A stretch of DNA of 32,531 bases from a virus (Duplodnaviria > Heunggongvirae > Uroviricota > Caudoviricetes). Shown here in pieces: positions 18,326 through 24,820 of the stretch. A model generated the notes under the pieces. The model was not told where the DNA came from. It did no database searches and saw only the letters and a program-made list of their open reading frames with translations. The translations under genes were made by a program, and so were the position numbers. The first letter of the stretch is position 1. Each line of letters opens with the position of its first letter. The DNA lies in IMG/VR virus record IMGVR_UViG_2909246061_000005, one strand, 5' to 3'.

Positions 18326-19603
18326 CTATGGTTTTTTATTAGAATCTTCGCCACTAAATAAATTATAATAAATTGATTTTATTAGATATCTGTCAGAATC
18401 TATATGGTCAGCACGAGTAGCATGCTCTAATGTTTCAAATGCTAGGGTTTGTGCGGCTTCAGCAAAAATTCCAGGCCAACCCTTACTCAGCATCGACAGT
18501 CCTTTAAGTACCCTTATCTGAATTTCCCTCATACTGGCACCATCGCGCGCAACAGGTGAGAAAAAGTCTTCAAGTAGATCGTTATTCTGAAGTGGTGCAA
18601 CATGTACAGAAGGATATTTCACTTCTATTTCATCAGATTTATTCTGCGCGTAAGCGGAAAGTATACGTACACCTCTGCCAATGACATCAATGGCGGTTCC
18701 AGGATCGTTCACTGCGGGGGAAAGGGCTCGGCAGGCTATTTCGGCCATGACGCTAAGACAAAATCGGGGGTCCTGAGCAAATGAACGTACATCCGAGACA
18801 ATAATCGTCTCAAGTAAATCGGTGCTGATTGATGACTCCTGGCCCTGACTCAGGTACAAAACTGGCGTGGACGGATGTATGAAACTGCCCGGCTGCGCCA
18901 CGAGGTATACATGACGGGGATCATTGGTCAGCAGCTTGCTGAGTTTCACCATATCAACATATTCAACATAGCCAATCTTTTTCGGATAAACTGCAACCGT
19001 TCCTTTCGGCTGTTCATTGTTCTCAAGCCATGGATATCCGCCGAGACAGGGATTTCTTGCTCTCGCAATAAATGTTTCGATGGCCGCCTGTTCTACTTTT
19101 GCCGTTGTCTCACCAACCCTCCCCAGAGAGGTCAAATGCTGTATCCAGCGAAGCAATGTGATGAGGATTAAGGCAATGACAACCAGTGTTACAATGAATA
19201 AAATGACTCTCCCCCTTTCTCCATAAGCTCCCATATTGAGGGCAATAATCCCTACCAGACTGAAGAGAAAAGAACCGATGAAGGTGGCCAGTACATTTTG
19301 TGTGGTGACGTCTTCAACAACTAAACGAGTAGCTCTGGGAGTCACATTAGTAGTGGCTGAACCGTAGGCTGTGACCATGATGCTCAGCGAAAATGTGGTC
19401 ACTGCCAGCATACTCGATGCCAGTATGTTCAGAATGTTATCGACTGCTTCCGCACCAACCTTCACGGAAACCGACTCAGGTATCATTGATTTAAAAAGAA
19501 TTGATAAAAGGGCCGTTATTATTGCGACAATTGCGAATAACGTTGCCCTGAACCATAGTTTTTTAAATGTCTGCTTCAGCATCCATTTCCAGCGTGAAAT
19601 CAT
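18326..19603 (-). CDS. DUF2254-like membrane protein
   Basis: 425 aa from the ATG at 19603 (SD GAGGGAA); the track start at 19618 lacks an RBS; N-terminal multi-TM region plus soluble C-terminal domain; family call is recalled. Confidence 0.6.
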   Translation of the reverse strand: MISRWKWMLKQTFKKLWFRATLFAIVAIITALLSILFKSMIPESVSVKVGAEAVDNILNILASSMLAVTTFSLSIMVTAYGSATTNVTPRATRLVVEDVTTQNVLATFIGSFLFSLVGIIALNMGAYGERGRVILFIVTLVVIALILITLLRWIQHLTSLGRVGETTAKVEQAAIETFIARARNPCLGGYPWLENNEQPKGTVAVYPKKIGYVEYVDMVKLSKLLTNDPRHVYLVAQPGSFIHPSTPVLYLSQGQESSISTDLLETIIVSDVRSFAQDPRFCLSVMAEIACRALSPAVNDPGTAIDVIGRGVRILSAYAQNKSDEIEVKYPSVHVAPLQNNDLLEDFFSPVARDGASMREIQIRVLKGLSMLSKGWPGIFAEAAQTLAFETLEHATRADHIDSDRYLIKSIYYNLFSGEDSNKKP

Positions 19604-19666
19604 TCTGCATTCCCTCATATTGCAGCCGGGATAAATAAATGCCGCCTCTGTGGCGGCATGTTGCTG

Positions 19667-21670
19667 TTAACGAACCAGATGCAGGAAGTGCAGGTGTTTT
19701 TCGTACTGGTCCAGTATGTCATTAATCAGCTGTTCCTGATTCCAGCCCATTACATCATAATTTTGGCCGCCCTCTTTGAGATAGACTTCAGCGCGATAAT
19801 ATCGATGTTGTTCACTCTGCTGCTCATCATTATCCAGCGCAGCGAGCGCGAAGGTCGGTGAGTTATACCCGCGAAGCCTCACTTCATATATATAATTCAG
19901 CTCGTTGCCCAAATCGACTTCAAGGCGAATACGATCCTCGGCGGCGTCACTGATGTGGCTTATCGTTCCCTGCTTGTTAAGTTCCTCCTGAACCAGCGTC
20001 ATGGCGGGTTGGATAATGTCGTCCATAAAACGTTTCACAAGAGAGCGCTTCGGCAAATACGCGATATTGCGTAACCTTCTCTGCCAGGGAATTGGGTTAC
20101 GTGCAGCCGTAGGAGCAATAGTCGCCATGCTAAGGCTTTCACGCTTGGTCAAATCCCGACGCAGGGCTTTTAACAGTCCGTATATGGATATTAATAAGAT
20201 AACTGAGAAGGGCAATGCACTCGCTATCGTTACGGTTTGCAACGCACTCAGCCCCCCTGCGATCAGCAGGGCAATAGCAACAACGCCCATGAGCGATGCC
20301 CAGAAAATTCGCTGCCAGACGGGCGTGTTTGCCACCCCACCTGATGCCAGAGTATCCACAACCATTGCCCCCGAATCAGCAGACGTTACAAAGAAGACGA
20401 TGACCATCGCCATTGCAATGAATGACAGCACGGAAGAGAACGGGAAATGCTCCAGGAAATTAAACAGGGCAAGCGCAACATCCTGCTGAACGGTATTGGC
20501 GAGGTCAGTGGCGCCCTGGTTCATGATGAGATAGATGGCGCTGTTTCCAAACACCGTCATCCACATGAGCGTAAAGCCGGCGGGAACAAACAACACGCCA
20601 GTCACGAACTCACGAATTGTCCTGCCGCGGGAAACGCGTGCAATGAACATACCTACAAACGGCGACCATGAAAGCCACCATCCCCAGTATAATAATGTCC
20701 AGCCCCCCAGCCAGTTGCTCGACTTGGGTTCATACGCGTAAAGGTTGAACGTTTTACTCACCAGTTCCGACAGATAACCACCCGTATTTTCCACAAATGA
20801 CTTCAGCAGAAGCACAGTGGGACCCAGGCACAAGACCAGCGCCAGGAGCAACACCGCCAGGCCCAGATTAAGCTCAGACAGGATGCGTATTCCCTTGTCC
20901 AGGCCGGACACCACCGAAATCGTCGCTAACCCCGTGATGACCACGATCAAAATGACCTGTACCGTTTCATTGATGGGCACGCCGAAAAGATGGTTCAAAC
21001 CGGCATTCACCTGCAATACACCGTAACCCAGCGATGTTGCAACGCCAAAGACAGTGCCTATCACGGCGAAGATATCAACCGCGTGGCCTATAGGCCCGTA
21101 AATGCGATCGCCGATAATGGGATAGAGCGCAGAACGCAGCGTTAAAGGCAGACCGTGACGGTAACTGAAAAAGGCCAGAATCAGCGCCACGATGGCATAA
21201 ATTGCCCATGCGTGCAGACCCCAGTGGAAGAACGTCAGGCGCATGGCTTCCTTCGCTGCCGCAACGGTCTCTGGAGTGCCGACAGGTGGCGAAAGATAAT
21301 GCATCACAGGTTCGGCAACGCCAAAGAACATCAGGCCGATCCCCATCCCTGCCGAAAAAAGCATCGCGAACCAGGAGTGGTAGCTGAAATCAGGCTGCGC
21401 ATGATCTGGGCCCAGCTTTATATCACCGTAACGTGAGAGTCCAAGGAACGTGACGCTCAGTAAAATCAGGGCCACAGCAAGTATGTAGAACCAGCTGGCA
21501 TTCGTGAAGATTTGTTGCTGAAGTAGTTTAAAATTTTTGTCGGCGACATCCGGGAATACGGCGGCAAAGGCGACAAGAAGGAAAATTAGCAAAGCAGATG
21601 TAAAGAATACCGCTTTGTTAATCTGGCTTGTAGACTTCTTTGGGGTTGTATCATTTTCACTCATAATCAT
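19667..21670 (-). CDS. BCCT-family transporter, BetT-like (choline/betaine type)
   Basis: 667 aa; WTLLYWGWWLSWSPFVGMFIARVSRGRTIREFV and C-terminal INDILDQYEKHLHFLHL parallel recalled E. coli BetT motifs. Confidence 0.85.
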   Translation of the reverse strand: MIMSENDTTPKKSTSQINKAVFFTSALLIFLLVAFAAVFPDVADKNFKLLQQQIFTNASWFYILAVALILLSVTFLGLSRYGDIKLGPDHAQPDFSYHSWFAMLFSAGMGIGLMFFGVAEPVMHYLSPPVGTPETVAAAKEAMRLTFFHWGLHAWAIYAIVALILAFFSYRHGLPLTLRSALYPIIGDRIYGPIGHAVDIFAVIGTVFGVATSLGYGVLQVNAGLNHLFGVPINETVQVILIVVITGLATISVVSGLDKGIRILSELNLGLAVLLLALVLCLGPTVLLLKSFVENTGGYLSELVSKTFNLYAYEPKSSNWLGGWTLLYWGWWLSWSPFVGMFIARVSRGRTIREFVTGVLFVPAGFTLMWMTVFGNSAIYLIMNQGATDLANTVQQDVALALFNFLEHFPFSSVLSFIAMAMVIVFFVTSADSGAMVVDTLASGGVANTPVWQRIFWASLMGVVAIALLIAGGLSALQTVTIASALPFSVILLISIYGLLKALRRDLTKRESLSMATIAPTAARNPIPWQRRLRNIAYLPKRSLVKRFMDDIIQPAMTLVQEELNKQGTISHISDAAEDRIRLEVDLGNELNYIYEVRLRGYNSPTFALAALDNDEQQSEQHRYYRAEVYLKEGGQNYDVMGWNQEQLINDILDQYEKHLHFLHLVR

Positions 21671-22004: not shown

Positions 22005-22427
22005 TCACTTCAATAAATACCGAACATCCCCCTGATAAAACGACAATATGCGCTGCATAACTTCGCTCTTCCGGCACTCGCGACAGATTATGTTTAGGCG
22101 ACTGTCGTAGCGACGTATTTCTCCGTCAGGTAATGACCAGATAAGGTCCGGATCAACCACAACCGGTTTCTTCAGCTTTGCCCTCGATAATTTTTTGCGG
22201 GCATTTTGCCAGTCTTTACGAGCCTGTTCAGACGGGAATAACCCGTAGCCAGAATTGTATACATCGCCACTGGCAACCAGCTCTCTGGCCAGAACGCTCA
22301 TCAGATATCTTGTTGCCCCAGTTTTAGCTTCCAGTTGTCGTAACGTCTCGCGCCCACTCTGGCGTACGAGTTCAAGAACCTGCCCTTTAATTTTTTCCCG
22401 CTCTTCTTGTGTAAAAACTTTTGCCAC
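22005..22427 (-). CDS. Hypothetical phage protein (140 aa) downstream of the replication initiator
   Basis: GTG start with strong SD AGGAGG at 4-nt spacing; basic, no Walker motif, so not a DnaC-type helicase loader. Confidence 0.5.
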   Translation of the reverse strand: MAKVFTQEEREKIKGQVLELVRQSGRETLRQLEAKTGATRYLMSVLARELVASGDVYNSGYGLFPSEQARKDWQNARKKLSRAKLKKPVVVDPDLIWSLPDGEIRRYDSRLNIICRECRKSEVMQRILSFYQGDVRYLLK

Positions 22428-22467: not shown

Positions 22468-23544
22468 TTACCCCCTGAAGCCCGGCGGAATTTCGTTATC
22501 CGGTTCAGAAATATGATTCACACAACGCTGGTTGTTCGTGCCGCTTACCGGGAGCAACCAGGGGTTCTCAAAATTCCGGTCCGGTCCAAAAAACGTCGTC
22601 GCTCGCTGAACAAATTCCGTTCCCGTTTTCCCGGTAGCCGCCAAGTATCTTGCGTAACGCCTCACGCCATCCAGCATGGCCTCTGGTGGCACCCCCTCGC
22701 GTAATCTGGCCTTCCAGGCACTGAAAGCGGATTTCTTCGGGTTTGCCCCAGCACGCAACGGGTACTCCCGCCAGACCTGTTCGAACACATCCGGATAATC
22801 CACTCGTCCCACAGACTGCCCGGTGTTTTCCGGGACTACCCGATCGGCTTCCCGCTGAATGGCGGAATCGGCTTCAGGCTGCTGCAGTTGGTGTGATTGC
22901 TCCGCCCTTGCGGTCATCACCTGCTGCACAGCGCCCGAATCGGCTTTCAGCGCATACGCTGAATCGGCTTCCGGTGTCGTGCCTGCTGGCTGACCAAGAT
23001 TGACGGTCTGAACATCCCCTGCCTGGTTCGTGGCGTTTTTTACGCCATGGACCATAGTGTTTTGATCTTCTTGATCTGTATCTTTATCTGTATCTTTATC
23101 TGTCGTGACTCGTCGTGACATGTGCGTGACATTTCGTGACGCGCCGTGACAATCGCCATTTTGTTCCCGCTTTCTTTCCCTCTCTCGCTGCGCCCTCTTG
23201 CGCTCTGCAGGAGATTTTGCGGTTTGCGAAATATTGCCGTTGTCCTCTTTAAGCACCTGGCGTTTTTCCCATCCAGTGATTAAATCACCATCAAGTACCC
23301 GCCCCTGCATCGTCTGCAAAATTGAATCAATTACCTCTTCTGTCACGTCGAGCGCACTTGCCAAATCTTCTGTCGTGACATCAATGTGACCTCGCGTGAC
23401 ATTTCGTGACGCGCTCACCAGGAGGTGGATATACACTGCCATCACTGTTGCAATTGGCTGTCCTGACACCCTGGCAATTGTTCGCCACTTAGGGTCATTT
23501 GGCATGTCATGCCATAATCTGAGCCAGGCGTTAGCCATACTCAC
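22468..23544 (-). CDS. Replication initiation protein (lambda O-like organisation; YdaU position)
   Basis: 358 aa; iteron arrays lie inside the coding sequence as in lambda O/ori; acidic DKDTDKDTD linker; start is the GTG at 23544 or the ATG at 23538. Confidence 0.6.
   Translation of the reverse strand: MSMANAWLRLWHDMPNDPKWRTIARVSGQPIATVMAVYIHLLVSASRNVTRGHIDVTTEDLASALDVTEEVIDSILQTMQGRVLDGDLITGWEKRQVLKEDNGNISQTAKSPAERKRAQRERERKREQNGDCHGASRNVTHMSRRVTTDKDTDKDTDQEDQNTMVHGVKNATNQAGDVQTVNLGQPAGTTPEADSAYALKADSGAVQQVMTARAEQSHQLQQPEADSAIQREADRVVPENTGQSVGRVDYPDVFEQVWREYPLRAGANPKKSAFSAWKARLREGVPPEAMLDGVRRYARYLAATGKTGTEFVQRATTFFGPDRNFENPWLLPVSGTNNQRCVNHISEPDNEIPPGFRG
23069..23150. repeat. Candidate origin iterons: 5 x CGTGAC at about 10-bp phasing, preceded by TATCTTTATCTG tandem repeats
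   Basis: CGTGAC at 23104, 23114, 23125, 23135, 23145; the 21-mer GCGTGACATTTCGTGACGCGC at 23124-23144 recurs at 23394-23414. Confidence 0.6.
23341..23414. repeat. Second iteron cluster (4 direct xGTGAC copies plus 1 inverted)
   Basis: GTCACG at 23343; CGTGAC at 23374, 23395, 23405; TGTGAC at 23385. Confidence 0.55.
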
Positions 23545-23609: not shown

Positions 23610-24035
23610 TCAATGCACAGCCACAATATTTCCTGCAGGGCCACCACGATTCATCTGGTTGAAACCAGCGATCGCCACTGCGACAAAATCATCAGCGTCT
23701 CTCACCAGTCGTTCCCGCGTCTCCACTAGTTCCCGAAAATAGGCTGAGCTATGGCTGCGCATTCGGGCCACCAGCAGAGGTGGCATTGCTTTTTCGATAG
23801 CTGGTAACAACGCCTGAATTTTTTCAACTGCATCAGGGGTGTCTTTCTCTACCCAGCGGAAAATTTTCTGGGTATTGCGAGCCAGGGCTTCCGGATGGCT
23901 GTCGTCATACAGTTCTGGGAACGTCATACCCAGTTCAAAATAAGCCCTGGTTATTTCAGCTGCCGGAACTTTTTCACCGTCCGGATGCGCCCAGGCATTC
24001 ATCGCCATGCGGATGTGTTCATGCTTGATTTTCAT
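23610..24035 (-). CDS. ydaT: YdaT-like protein
   Basis: 141 aa, in the Rac ydaT position (K-12 ydaT is about 140 aa) downstream of the Cro-like gene; overlaps it by 17 nt. Confidence 0.55.
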   Translation of the reverse strand: MKIKHEHIRMAMNAWAHPDGEKVPAAEITRAYFELGMTFPELYDDSHPEALARNTQKIFRWVEKDTPDAVEKIQALLPAIEKAMPPLLVARMRSHSSAYFRELVETRERLVRDADDFVAVAIAGFNQMNRGGPAGNIVAVH

Positions 24036-24300
24036 GAATCAAGCTCCTAGAAAGTGGTTGTGTTAACATTTTGGTATCTTCCAGCTCGGGCCAAATATTC
24101 ATCCAATCAAAAGGCCTTAGTTGCTGACGTGTAACTTCACCATTACTGGCTCGCTCAATAAGGACACATAACGATGCCCCTAACACTTGACCTTTACTCA
24201 ATGCCTTTCTTAGATAACCGATGCTGGTACCACACTCGCATGCAAACATACGCTGTTCATCTGACGAAAGAGAATTGAGAAATATTCTTAATTCTTCCAT
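24019..24300 (-). CDS. ydaS: YdaS-like Cro-type HTH protein
   Basis: 93 aa, first gene of the rightward-equivalent early operon, divergent from the repressor; HTH-like segment GTSIGYLRKALSKGQ. Confidence 0.55.
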   Translation of the reverse strand: MEELRIFLNSLSSDEQRMFACECGTSIGYLRKALSKGQVLGASLCVLIERASNGEVTRQQLRPFDWMNIWPELEDTKMLTQPLSRSLIHENQA

Positions 24301-24329
24301 AGCTACTCCTTAGTAAACACAGCAAAGAA

Positions 24330-24406
24330 TACCCATAGGTAAACAAAAGTCAATACCCACAGGTTGTTTACCTTGCAGTAATCGCATCTATTATTTACCT
24401 ATGGAC
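24330..24406. promoter_or_regulatory. Operator-like palindromes in the divergent promoter region (TACCCATAGGTA; TACCCACAGGTT; TACCTATGG)
   Basis: Three related 12-bp (half-)palindromes between the Cro-like and repressor genes; the third overlaps the repressor ATG. Confidence 0.6.
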
Positions 24407-24820
24407 AAATATGAATTTAGACGACAGCAACTCATCAAAATTCGTGATGAGAAATGCGATGGTAAAGCGGTTAACGTGGCCAGAAAGATCGGGCGCGAGC
24501 CTTCTTATGTATCAAGAATGTTGTACCCAGAGGGGAAAAAGGGAAAAAAACGGATCGCTGATGATATGGTGGAGATTATCGAAGAGTCCTTTGGGTTACC
24601 CCGGGGATGGATGGATGGTATCGTTTCATCATCAACGAACACAGCCTCCAGTTATGAAACAAGGGTTCTAACGCCACGACAACGTATTTTTTTAGATCTC
24701 TTAGACGAACTGCCAGAAAGTGAAGCGGATAACTTATTAAAAACTCTTGAAGAGAAAAAACAGTATTACAATATGATCTACGAAGAAATCCGTAAAAAGA
24801 AAGCACAAAACGCATCATAG
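24401..24820 (+). CDS. Prophage repressor-like HTH protein (RacR position)
   Basis: 139 aa; HTH (GKAVNVARKIGREPSYVSRML); divergent from the Cro-like gene; flanked on both sides by the same palindromic motif. Confidence 0.6.
   Translation: MDKYEFRRQQLIKIRDEKCDGKAVNVARKIGREPSYVSRMLYPEGKKGKKRIADDMVEIIEESFGLPRGWMDGIVSSSTNTASSYETRVLTPRQRIFLDLLDELPESEADNLLKTLEEKKQYYNMIYEEIRKKKAQNAS

Follow-up and report, generated by a model that had tools for sequence, protein, structure and literature searches.

Origins within initiator genes

It is textbook knowledge that the replication origin of bacteriophage lambda lies within the gene of its initiator. The binding sites (oriL) of the SPP1 protein G38P likewise sit inside its own gene 38, and G38P works with the loader G39P and the helicase G40P. 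Lambdoid origins occupy the central part of gene O and comprise iterons together with an AT-rich tract (PMC7466680). Among 314 lambdoid phages, 34 encode an O homologue only; phage LLS, one such phage, has been grown on K-12, and replication of this kind was described as "not yet understood" (Zheng, Casjens, Davidson, Amundsen, & Smith, Genome Res 2025; PMC12315714). The window considered here, by which we mean the whole 32,531-nucleotide (nt) stretch of DNA in IMG/VR virus record IMGVR_UViG_2909246061_000005 (Caudoviricetes), belongs to a Rac-type prophage of Escherichia coli and carries a predicted replication initiator gene with two arrays of the hexamer CGTGAC inside its coding sequence. 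Comparison with related loci favors, at a probability of roughly 0.6, a lambdoid origin that lies within its own initiator gene and would draw on the host loading system through the initiator's C-terminus.

The likeness to lambda O and ori-lambda is one of layout: the origin falls between the parts of the gene coding for an N-terminal DNA-binding and a C-terminal partner-binding region, direct repeats are followed by an AT-rich tract, and transcription from pR would pass through the origin. Unlike lambda O, the window initiator stands outside the O family, its gene has a second array in the region coding for the DNA-binding domain, no P gene comes next, and the repeated word is a 6-bp core at a 10–11 bp period, against the 19-bp iterons of lambda. 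LLS resembles the window in its single initiator gene without a helicase or loader, and in an O protein that ends ...DTKIPEGFRG; however, LLS O combines an HTH_36 N-terminal domain with Phg_2220_C, whereas the window initiator has a replisome-organizer-like N-terminal domain and another, helical C-terminal domain. SPP1 G38P may share a replisome-organizer-type N-terminal domain, to judge from a full-profile Pfam match that stays below the cut-off, and the sequence relation is remote. Extra distal iterons, in turn, recall the Stx phages 933W and P27 (PMC7466680). What goes beyond the ordinary origin-in-initiator arrangement is that the second array in the DNA-binding-domain coding sequence is family-wide, and that a DnaT-type tail is tied to loader-less lambdoid modules, which makes the open question of 2025 testable.

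Repeat arrays in the initiator gene

Both arrays lie inside a minus-strand open reading frame (ORF), 22468–23544. In array 1, CGTGAC starts on the + strand at 23104, 23114, 23125, 23135, and 23145, giving spacings of 10, 11, 10, and 10 bp and bearing out the original prediction of five words at about 10-bp phasing. Array 2 has exact words starting at 23374, 23395, and 23405 and a one-base variant, TGTGAC, at 23385 (spacings 11, 10, and 10 bp), and a single inverted word lies nearby. Since the words are repeated once per helical turn, they align on one face of the DNA. Across both strands of the whole window there are 19 copies of CGTGAC, against 11.6 expected from shuffles, and nine of these fall within 307 bp, where 0.11 would be expected (Poisson P = 5e-15, or about 5e-11 after correction for position). 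The identical 21-mer that had been reported about 270 bp away is exact: GCGTGACATTTCGTGACGCGC occurs at 23124–23144 and again at 23394–23414, offset by exactly 270 bp, and an 11-mer, TCTGTCGTGAC, is repeated at the same offset (23099 and 23369).

On the coding strand, the linker array reads GAT TGT CAC GGC GCG TCA CGA AAT GTC ACG CAC ATG TCA CGA CGA GTC ACG ACA GAT, and GTCACG falls in all three reading frames within it. The peptide encoded by these words is CHGASRNVTHMSRRVT. The repeats had earlier been credited with encoding the acidic DKDTD linker of the initiator, which is true of the adjacent 12-bp tandem repeat and not of the CGTGAC words. The 12-bp unit, TCTTTATCTGTA (GATAAAGATACA on the coding strand), stands three times in tandem at 23069–23104, overlaps the AT tract, and encodes DKDT. 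Array 2 encodes amino acids (aa) 45–57 (ASRNVTRGHIDVT; residues are numbered on the 358-aa longest ORF, from GTG 23544), which in the structural model form the end of helix 1 and the loop or strand before helix 2; the inverted word is modeled to encode the turn preceding the third helix. A promoter-like match on the + strand at 23126–23153 was rejected, as it consists of the repeat words themselves at chance level.

Conservation of the arrays in related initiator genes

A profile search with the N-terminal domain retrieved 64 loci, one genome per species, from Gamma-, Beta-, and Alphaproteobacteria and Acidobacteria. No described origin was found for an initiator family of this span, and a survey of arrays over 59 related loci gives it a testable anatomy, in which a pair of co-evolving arrays is accompanied by an AT tract and a palindrome. 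Whether homologous initiator genes have the repeats was a check set beforehand, and they do, at the same two positions: most of the 59 loci carry hexamer arrays of 10–11 bp period at two places downstream of the conserved DPKW codon, one at +86 to +117 nt and the other at about +300 to +390 nt. The word is GTCACG in 23 loci, CGAACG or GAACGC in 16, GTAACG in six, and GCAACG in one, and the repeated hexamer is identical at both positions in 46 of the 59. Word sharing amounts to 78% within a locus, against 13% between clades. Because the word is common to both sites of a gene and differs between clades, the two arrays change in concert, and the encoded peptides change in pairs: one clade combines ASRNVTRGH with SRNVT...DKD, another ASNATERGRT with NATERNRT...DKD. 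At the linker position, related loci have three to seven words, with the AT tract always directly next. The inverted word is kept at +149 in many loci of clade 1, where the overlapping Val codon is GTG in 100%. Among distant relatives, a Lysobacter locus (L146) has five CGTCAC at the gene start and three inverted copies near +340, a second (L127) is without array A of the survey, which corresponds to array 2, and a third (L144) uses ACTACG on both strands.

The codons inside the words carry a signal of their own. In 23 clade-1 genes from different genera, degenerate (4- to 6-fold) positions within words are filled by one codon in 91–100% of genes (GCG 91%, TCA 96%, GTC 100%, ACG 100%, GGT 100%, GTC 100%, ACG 95%, GTG 100%), and the array 2 codons behave in the same way (TCA 96%, GTC 100%, ACG 100%, GGT 100%, CAC 100%). 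For equally conserved residues outside the words, the commonest codon accounts for only 25–60% (Mann–Whitney P = 1.5e-5 against the in-word codons). As judged from this codon usage, selection acts on the DNA of the words and not on the protein alone, a clean case in which DNA-level selection overrides codon choice inside a protein domain. With synonymous codons frozen and words that differ by clade, the arrays are best read as DNA-level sites co-evolving with the N-terminal domain.

Phages that share all or part of the gene point in the same direction. In Escherichia phage vB_EcoS-689R5 the gene is the same (98.6% aa identity), and every word is present. Pseudomonas phage P7869 has the N-terminal domain alone in common (69.5% aa identity over aa 3–140), followed by another C-terminus and then a primase-helicase; at the nucleotide level both arrays are still there, as is the inverted copy. 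In gp15 of Shigella phage 75/02 Stx, the C-terminal half alone is in common (63%), and its gene has no word cluster. By this comparison, the word goes with the N-terminal domain, varying along with it and missing where another domain stands in its place. Arrays at the same sites in relatives, a co-varying word, frozen codons, and an adjoining AT tract uphold the lambda O/ori logic of the original prediction, and the assignment of an origin and its iterons is very probably correct.

The initiator protein

The initiator opens with a presumed origin-binding domain at the N-terminus; a linker joins this to a helical C-terminal domain, and a tail ends the protein. PHROG 3729, annotated "replication initiation protein," matches it over its full length (E = 2e-257), and further PHROGs divide it into an N-terminal (about aa 1–165) and a C-terminal (about aa 200–358) part. 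Matches to PHROG 4880 and 5968 ("replisome organizer") are weak; in its NCBI cluster, members are named "phage replisome organizer" or, for one of them, "DnaT-like ssDNA-binding domain-containing protein." A standard Pfam search with the initiator returned nothing at E ≤ 0.01, while the N-terminal 135 residues align to positions 1–119 of the 121 of PF09681 (Phage_rep_org_N) at E = 0.0096 and 16.4 bits, short of the cut-off of 23.3. None of the lambda O family profiles Phage_rep_O, HTH_36, and Phg_2220_C matched the initiator even at E ≤ 5, in a search that did match LLS O to HTH_36 and Phg_2220_C.

Residues 1–135 are modeled by AlphaFold2 (AF2) with a mean predicted local distance difference test score (pLDDT) of 79, in the helix-strand-helix-helix-hairpin order of a winged helix, with helices at 18–27, 31–47, 58–65, and 69–79 and a hairpin at 80–90. 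Protein searches with single domains yielded mainly partial E. coli proteins and frameshifted pieces, and the alignment behind the model of the C-terminal domain is shallow, at 12 rows after removal of seven. As for the start of the gene, the GTG at 23544 sits within a Shine–Dalgarno-like AAGAGGTGAGT, and the ATG at 23538, used by the Prokaryotic Genome Annotation Pipeline (PGAP), is the likely start.

AT tract, palindrome, and other presumed origin elements

The AT tract is strand-asymmetric and the least stable 40 bp of the gene, at −43.4 kcal/mol against a mean of −54.5 (standard deviation 4.4) by nearest-neighbor calculation, and encodes TDKDTDKDTDQEDQ. A purine-rich tract of the CAGATAAAGATAAAGA type follows the linker array directly in every clade, whatever the word, and it probably serves as the unwinding element. 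The 12-bp unit that overlaps it varies from one to five copies among 83 E. coli-type loci, yielding initiators of 354–370 aa, and array 1 keeps five words in 79 of these 83. Two GATC (Dam) sites, at 23064 and 23073, lie 9 bp apart within the tract and are possible control points for SeqA and Dam.

Beyond the tract, on the side away from the iterons, lies a palindrome. Hairpin-capable repeats of unrelated sequence are enriched at its position in 49 related loci (Mann–Whitney P = 6e-7), and a perfect stem of at least 7 bp occurs there in 22% of related loci as opposed to 2% of controls. A pR-like promoter is predicted upstream of the cro-like, CII/YdaT-like, and initiator genes, and its transcript would cross both arrays. 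No DnaA boxes (≤1 mismatch) were found near the origin, leaving a plasmid-like, DnaA-assisted scheme unsupported by the sequence, and Rfam gave no RNA family match on either strand from 21.8 to 25.0 kb. Coordinates of all features are collected in Table 1.

Table 1. Features of the replication region, in window coordinates
Feature	Position	Strand	Basis or remarks
Downstream 140-aa gene, DUF977 ("LygF"/"Ren-like")	22005..22427	-	Pfam PF06163, PHROG 142
Initiator gene	22468..23538	-	PGAP WP_001262352.1, 356 aa
DnaT-type tail, RCVNHISEPDNEIPPGFRG-COOH	22471..22527	-	BLASTP to DnaT, PDB sequence matches
C-terminal helical domain	22591..22791	-	about aa 252–318; common to initiators with other N-terminal domains
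Palindrome	23024..23054		13-bp arms (85% complementary), 5-nt loop; beyond AT tract, away from iterons
AT-rich tract, presumed unwinding element	23056..23103		71% AT; purines 71% of coding strand
Array 1 (array B of the family survey)	23104..23150		five CGTGAC, interdomain linker; presumed core initiator-binding site
N-terminal domain, winged-helix-like, presumed iteron reader	23260..23538	-	about aa 3–95
Single inverted word (GTCACG on + strand)	23342..23347		27 bp from array 2
Array 2 (array A of the family survey)	23374..23410		three exact CGTGAC and one TGTGAC
pR-like promoter	24326..24353	-	consensus scan only, 9/12 matches

C-terminal partners and the DnaT-type tail

Downstream partner genes vary with the C-terminus among the 64 loci that share the N-terminal domain. 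They encode a DnaB-like helicase in six loci, a lambda-P-like protein in four, a DnaC/IstB-like protein in three, and a primase-helicase in three (as well as in P7869), the rest being DUF6475 or unknown. The C-terminal motif tracks the partner, as with ...NFxKVxEGKY before DnaB-like genes. The window initiator terminates in ...SEPDNEIPPGFRG, which is of the DnaT type: BLASTP aligns it to residues 155–179 of E. coli DnaT, which ends RDVNTVSEPDSQIPPGFRG, with 15 of 25 positions identical (E = 1e-7). All DnaT matches (NCBIfam; PDB 6aep, 2ru8, and 9zbt_D) are confined to this stretch.

The same tail occurs on K-12 YdaU and on 75/02 Stx gp15, each followed by a DnaC-like gene, and on the lone O of LLS. 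YdaU, LLS O, 75/02 Stx gp15, and the window initiator have unrelated N-terminal domains and share with host DnaT a D-x-x-I-P-x-G-F-R-G end; as in the phages, where a DnaC-like gene comes after the initiator, dnaC comes after dnaT in the dnaT-dnaC operon. A pattern scan of IMG/VR for ORFs ending in IPPGFRG-stop found at least 120 stretches, of which 80 listed loci were analyzed. Here the tail sits on at least four unrelated types of N-terminal domain, the initiator classes that bear it being replisome-organizer-like, lambda-O-like, DUF1376/YdaU, and the 75/02 Stx gp15 type. A DnaC-like gene comes next in 33 loci, the DUF977 gene in 29, and another gene in six; a DnaC-like gene is found anywhere in the locus in 40 of the 80 and in the other 40 there is none, while P-like, DnaB-like, and primase-helicase genes occur in none of the 80. 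In the genome set, the full tail I-P-x-G-F-R-G is restricted to Enterobacterales, and it is within Enterobacterales that dnaC was domesticated from phage (PMC5109545).

K-12 YdaU has the end ...SLPDSAIPPGFRG and a TNKDTDKD linker; unlike the window initiator, it has a DUF1376, unrelated N-terminal domain, its gene has GATGTTCAA-like repeats, and the DnaC-like YdaV comes next. In the suggested comparison with ydaU-ydaV of K-12 Rac, ydaU turned out to be of a different initiator family; K-12 ydaU was rejected as a homologue, with only the tail and a DKD-type linker in common. DnaT resembles the window initiator in its last 20–25 residues, and relatives of the initiator gene lie directly upstream of a DnaC-family gene, as dnaT does of dnaC. 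The window initiator is without the DnaT N-terminal domain, and would be sequence-specific and origin-bound where DnaT is bound to fork structures. A phage initiator N-terminal domain joined to a DnaT-like end is a combination noticed before, for DopC, in which an O-like N-terminal domain precedes a "DnaT C-terminal motif" recognized by HHpred against 2ru8 (Brezellec et al., Genome Biol Evol 2017; PMC5509034). In contrast to the window, with its intact iterons and no partner gene, DopC is chromosomal, has no iterons, and is paired with the lambda-P-like DopE.

Missing loader and the DUF977 neighbor

No helicase-loader gene follows the initiator, as the original prediction stated. The next gene encodes a 140-aa DUF977 protein (PF06163, E = 2.2e-28, 99.4 bits against a cut-off of 22.1, residues 1–135), and tblastn over the whole window found no DnaC-like, lambda-P-like, DnaB-like, or primase-helicase gene, nor does the annotation list one. 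Among 77 IMG/VR loci with an identical N-terminal domain, DUF977 directly follows the initiator in 68. In eight of the 77, a 248-aa DnaC-like gene, whose product is 80% identical to K-12 YdaV, and a DUF1627 gene lie between the two. DnaC-like and DUF1627 genes before DUF977 are also the order in phage 75/02 Stx, and K-12 has ydaU-ydaV-ydaW. Because it follows DnaC-like and DUF1627 genes in relatives, DUF977 is a regular downstream neighbor and not a replacement for the loader, and the 140-aa protein was rejected as a loader substitute, given that it co-occurs with DnaC-like loaders.

Phage Tritos, whose genome is complete, also has the junction of initiator and DUF977 without a loader, as do phage Evi and three vB_Eco phage records. 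Tritos has full sets of morphogenesis and lysis genes, with the initiator as its sole annotated replication gene, and belongs to the phage set of Zheng et al. 2025 (PMC12315714). With tblastn, neither the 11.6-kb regions of Tritos and Evi nor the complete genome of LLS yielded a DnaC-, P-, DnaB-, or primase-helicase-like gene. Since the loader-less form recurs in the complete Tritos genome and in phage Evi, the module belongs to the known "O-only" type.

Proposed mechanism and its alternatives

In the mechanism that we propose, the winged-helix-like N-terminal domain would bind the 6-bp core GTCACG, one word per helical turn. Initiator assembled on the linker array would melt the adjacent AT tract, which the palindrome bounds. 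Array 2, with four direct copies and one inverted, most likely provides extra initiator-loading sites or loops to array 1, and may also feed back on transcription of the initiator gene. The tail, or the helical domain before it, would engage the host DnaB-DnaC loading system such that no phage loader is needed, and relatives with the same C-terminus would use a phage-encoded DnaC paralogue instead. Sequence comparison shows the repeats, how they are conserved and vary with the N-terminal domain, the AT tract, the shared tail, and that no loader gene is present; that the initiator binds and melts the DNA, what array 2 does, and which partner the tail has are inferred. Recruitment of host DnaB-DnaC is the weakest step, and a route to host DnaC by way of the DnaT-type tail falls somewhat short of even odds.

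Several points weigh against this reading. Foldseek found no significant match in PDB for the N-terminal model, the best being CAP- and MarR-type winged helices at E of about 0.6, because of which the domain is termed winged-helix-like only. Protein-level selection may act on the conserved peptide of array 2 as well, and the two constraints are confounded there, with the codon signal alone separating them. The likeness to DnaT is short: by BLASTP and PDB search only the last 20–25 residues align, and the N-terminal oligomerization domain is not matched; Pfam DnaT (PF17948) gave no match to the initiator, and profile-profile comparison (hhalign) of the helical domain with DnaT gave a probability of 2%. 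Foldseek, too, gave no DnaT-like match for the helical domain, leaving a three-helix domain for binding single-stranded DNA (ssDNA), like that of DnaT, unsupported. In a 2026 cryo-EM paper on the preprimosome, recruitment of DnaB/DnaC is proposed to fall to the DnaT N-terminal domain, which the window initiator does not have, and the DnaT C-terminal domain is placed on PriA and ssDNA. Some loader-less relatives in Enterobacterales are without a DnaT-type tail (among them L088, L090, L092, and L108). Since the prophage is defective, its origin may no longer be in use. Lastly, dnaC-like and DUF1627 genes are present in sibling loci that have this initiator, and the 40-bp intergenic gap between initiator and DUF977 gene could be a deletion scar.

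As to the ends of those tail-less relatives, several have acidic, ...LD-x-x-DW-like motifs, and at the Pseudomonas locus L110 a similar acidic motif goes with a lambda-P-like gene.

Of the alternatives, the likeliest concerns array 2, which may lie outside the origin and act as an autoregulatory, operator-like site or pair origins to limit copy number. This is a possibility to be taken seriously, if an improbable one. Array 2 lies about 220 bp from array 1 in the window, has no AT tract of its own, and has an inverted copy alongside; the pR-like transcript must cross it; and its distance to array 1 varies between loci from about 190 to 330 bp, because of which no fixed helical phasing links the two arrays. 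Yet its word, phasing, and orientation are those of array 1, with the word switching in step, and an operator-like function would be compatible with an origin role as well. In Stx phage, moreover, extra distal iterons are needed for replication (PMC7466680).

A second alternative accepts the origin and departs from our reading at the loading step, which would proceed otherwise than by DnaC recognition of the tail: either through docking on PriA or ssDNA, leading to PriA-PriB-DnaT-DnaC, or through direct contact with DnaB, as for plasmid Rep proteins. DnaT residues 154–179 contribute to the cooperativity of ssDNA binding, and as the C-terminal domain of DnaT sits on PriA and ssDNA, a route of this kind is a serious rival, though we regard it as unlikely. 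Against it, the likeness to DnaT is limited to the tail and does not extend to the DNA-binding three-helix bundle. Furthermore, half of the listed tail loci have dnaC-like genes nearby and none has a partner of another type, and because the tail neighbors dnaC-like genes and never other partners, a link to a DnaC-family loader fits better than one to PriA.

Carried further, engagement of DnaC by the tail leads to a broader and decidedly speculative proposal, in which D-x-x-I-P-x-G-F-R-G-COOH would be a portable adaptor that couples origin- or fork-bound proteins to DnaC-family loaders and lets O-only phages use host DnaC. The chromosomal dnaT-dnaC operon would, if so, descend from a phage initiator-loader pair. 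On the origin side of this proposal, the word in the initiator's own binding-domain sequence would tie the site to changes in the protein: because it lies in the DNA-binding-domain coding sequence, a change in specificity would have to alter site and protein at the same nucleotides. The matter bears on the role of the last 20 residues of DnaT and on the source of the dnaT-dnaC operon.

A third alternative, that of a decayed module, holds that an ancestral order of initiator, dnaC-like, DUF1627, and DUF977 genes lost its loader to a deletion of about 1.5 kb, leaving the origin a non-functional relic. It can appeal to the DnaC-like and DUF1627 genes in eight of the 77 loci, to a gap that is loosely like the two junctions, and to the absence of most morphogenesis genes from the prophage. 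However, 68 of the 77 loci have this loader-less junction, and so do the complete Tritos genome and the Evi and vB_Eco records; the initiator ORF and all words are intact, and 222 E. coli records match the 3.2-kb region at 99% identity or more; and initiator-only modules are frequent in lambdoid phages, including the laboratory-grown LLS (PMC12315714). Simple decay is accordingly a poor account of the locus. The original prediction had allowed for an incomplete module or a non-canonical partner; to judge from these loci the module has probably not just decayed, and the partner is not the 140-aa protein.

Finally, the view that the repeats are a by-product of protein repeats or of chance, without a function as DNA, can point to the similar, family-conserved peptides that both arrays encode (ASRNVT...VTT), and is nonetheless hardly tenable given a cluster P of about 1e-15, a 10–11 bp period that is not a multiple of 3 with the word in three frames, synonymous codons frozen inside the words only, and a word that switches jointly at both sites.

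Prophage setting

Gene annotation for the window comes from NZ_AP025220.2, an E. coli chromosome (100% identity), and 414 complete genomes cover 80% or more of a 3.2-kb query taken around the arrays. According to the record annotation, the element is a Rac-type cryptic prophage at ttcA that carries intR, xisR, recET, racC, kilR, and sieB. After the immunity genes come, in order, the 356-aa "hypothetical protein" that is the initiator, DUF977, a cargo island of transporters and regulators, nin-like genes, and lysis genes; on its left side the window has trkG, a capsid-family gene, a tail fiber gene, and pinR. The window's prophage annotation includes no terminase, portal, or tail shaft genes, and most tail and morphogenesis genes are absent; because of this the prophage is defective, as is K-12 Rac. 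With the oriJ region of K-12 Rac it shares the prophage family, the ttcA site, and flanking recET, kilR, and sieB, and ydaW corresponds to the DUF977 gene, whereas the immunity gene is racR in K-12 and encodes a 139-aa repressor in the window.

The immunity region at 23610–24820 is unlike that of K-12 Rac. The gene of the 139-aa repressor (PHROG 5736, with a weakly DicA-like C-terminus) opposes genes for a 93-aa cro/YdaS-like and a 141-aa YdaT/CII-like protein, and immunity genes of the same sizes and in the same order stand beside the same replication module in phage Tritos. The cargo island (14352–21664), between the DUF977 gene and the nin-like genes, encodes DUF1971, an MFS transporter, a gamma-glutamylcyclotransferase, a LysR regulator, DUF2254, and a BCCT (BetT-like) transporter, with no phage functions among these products.

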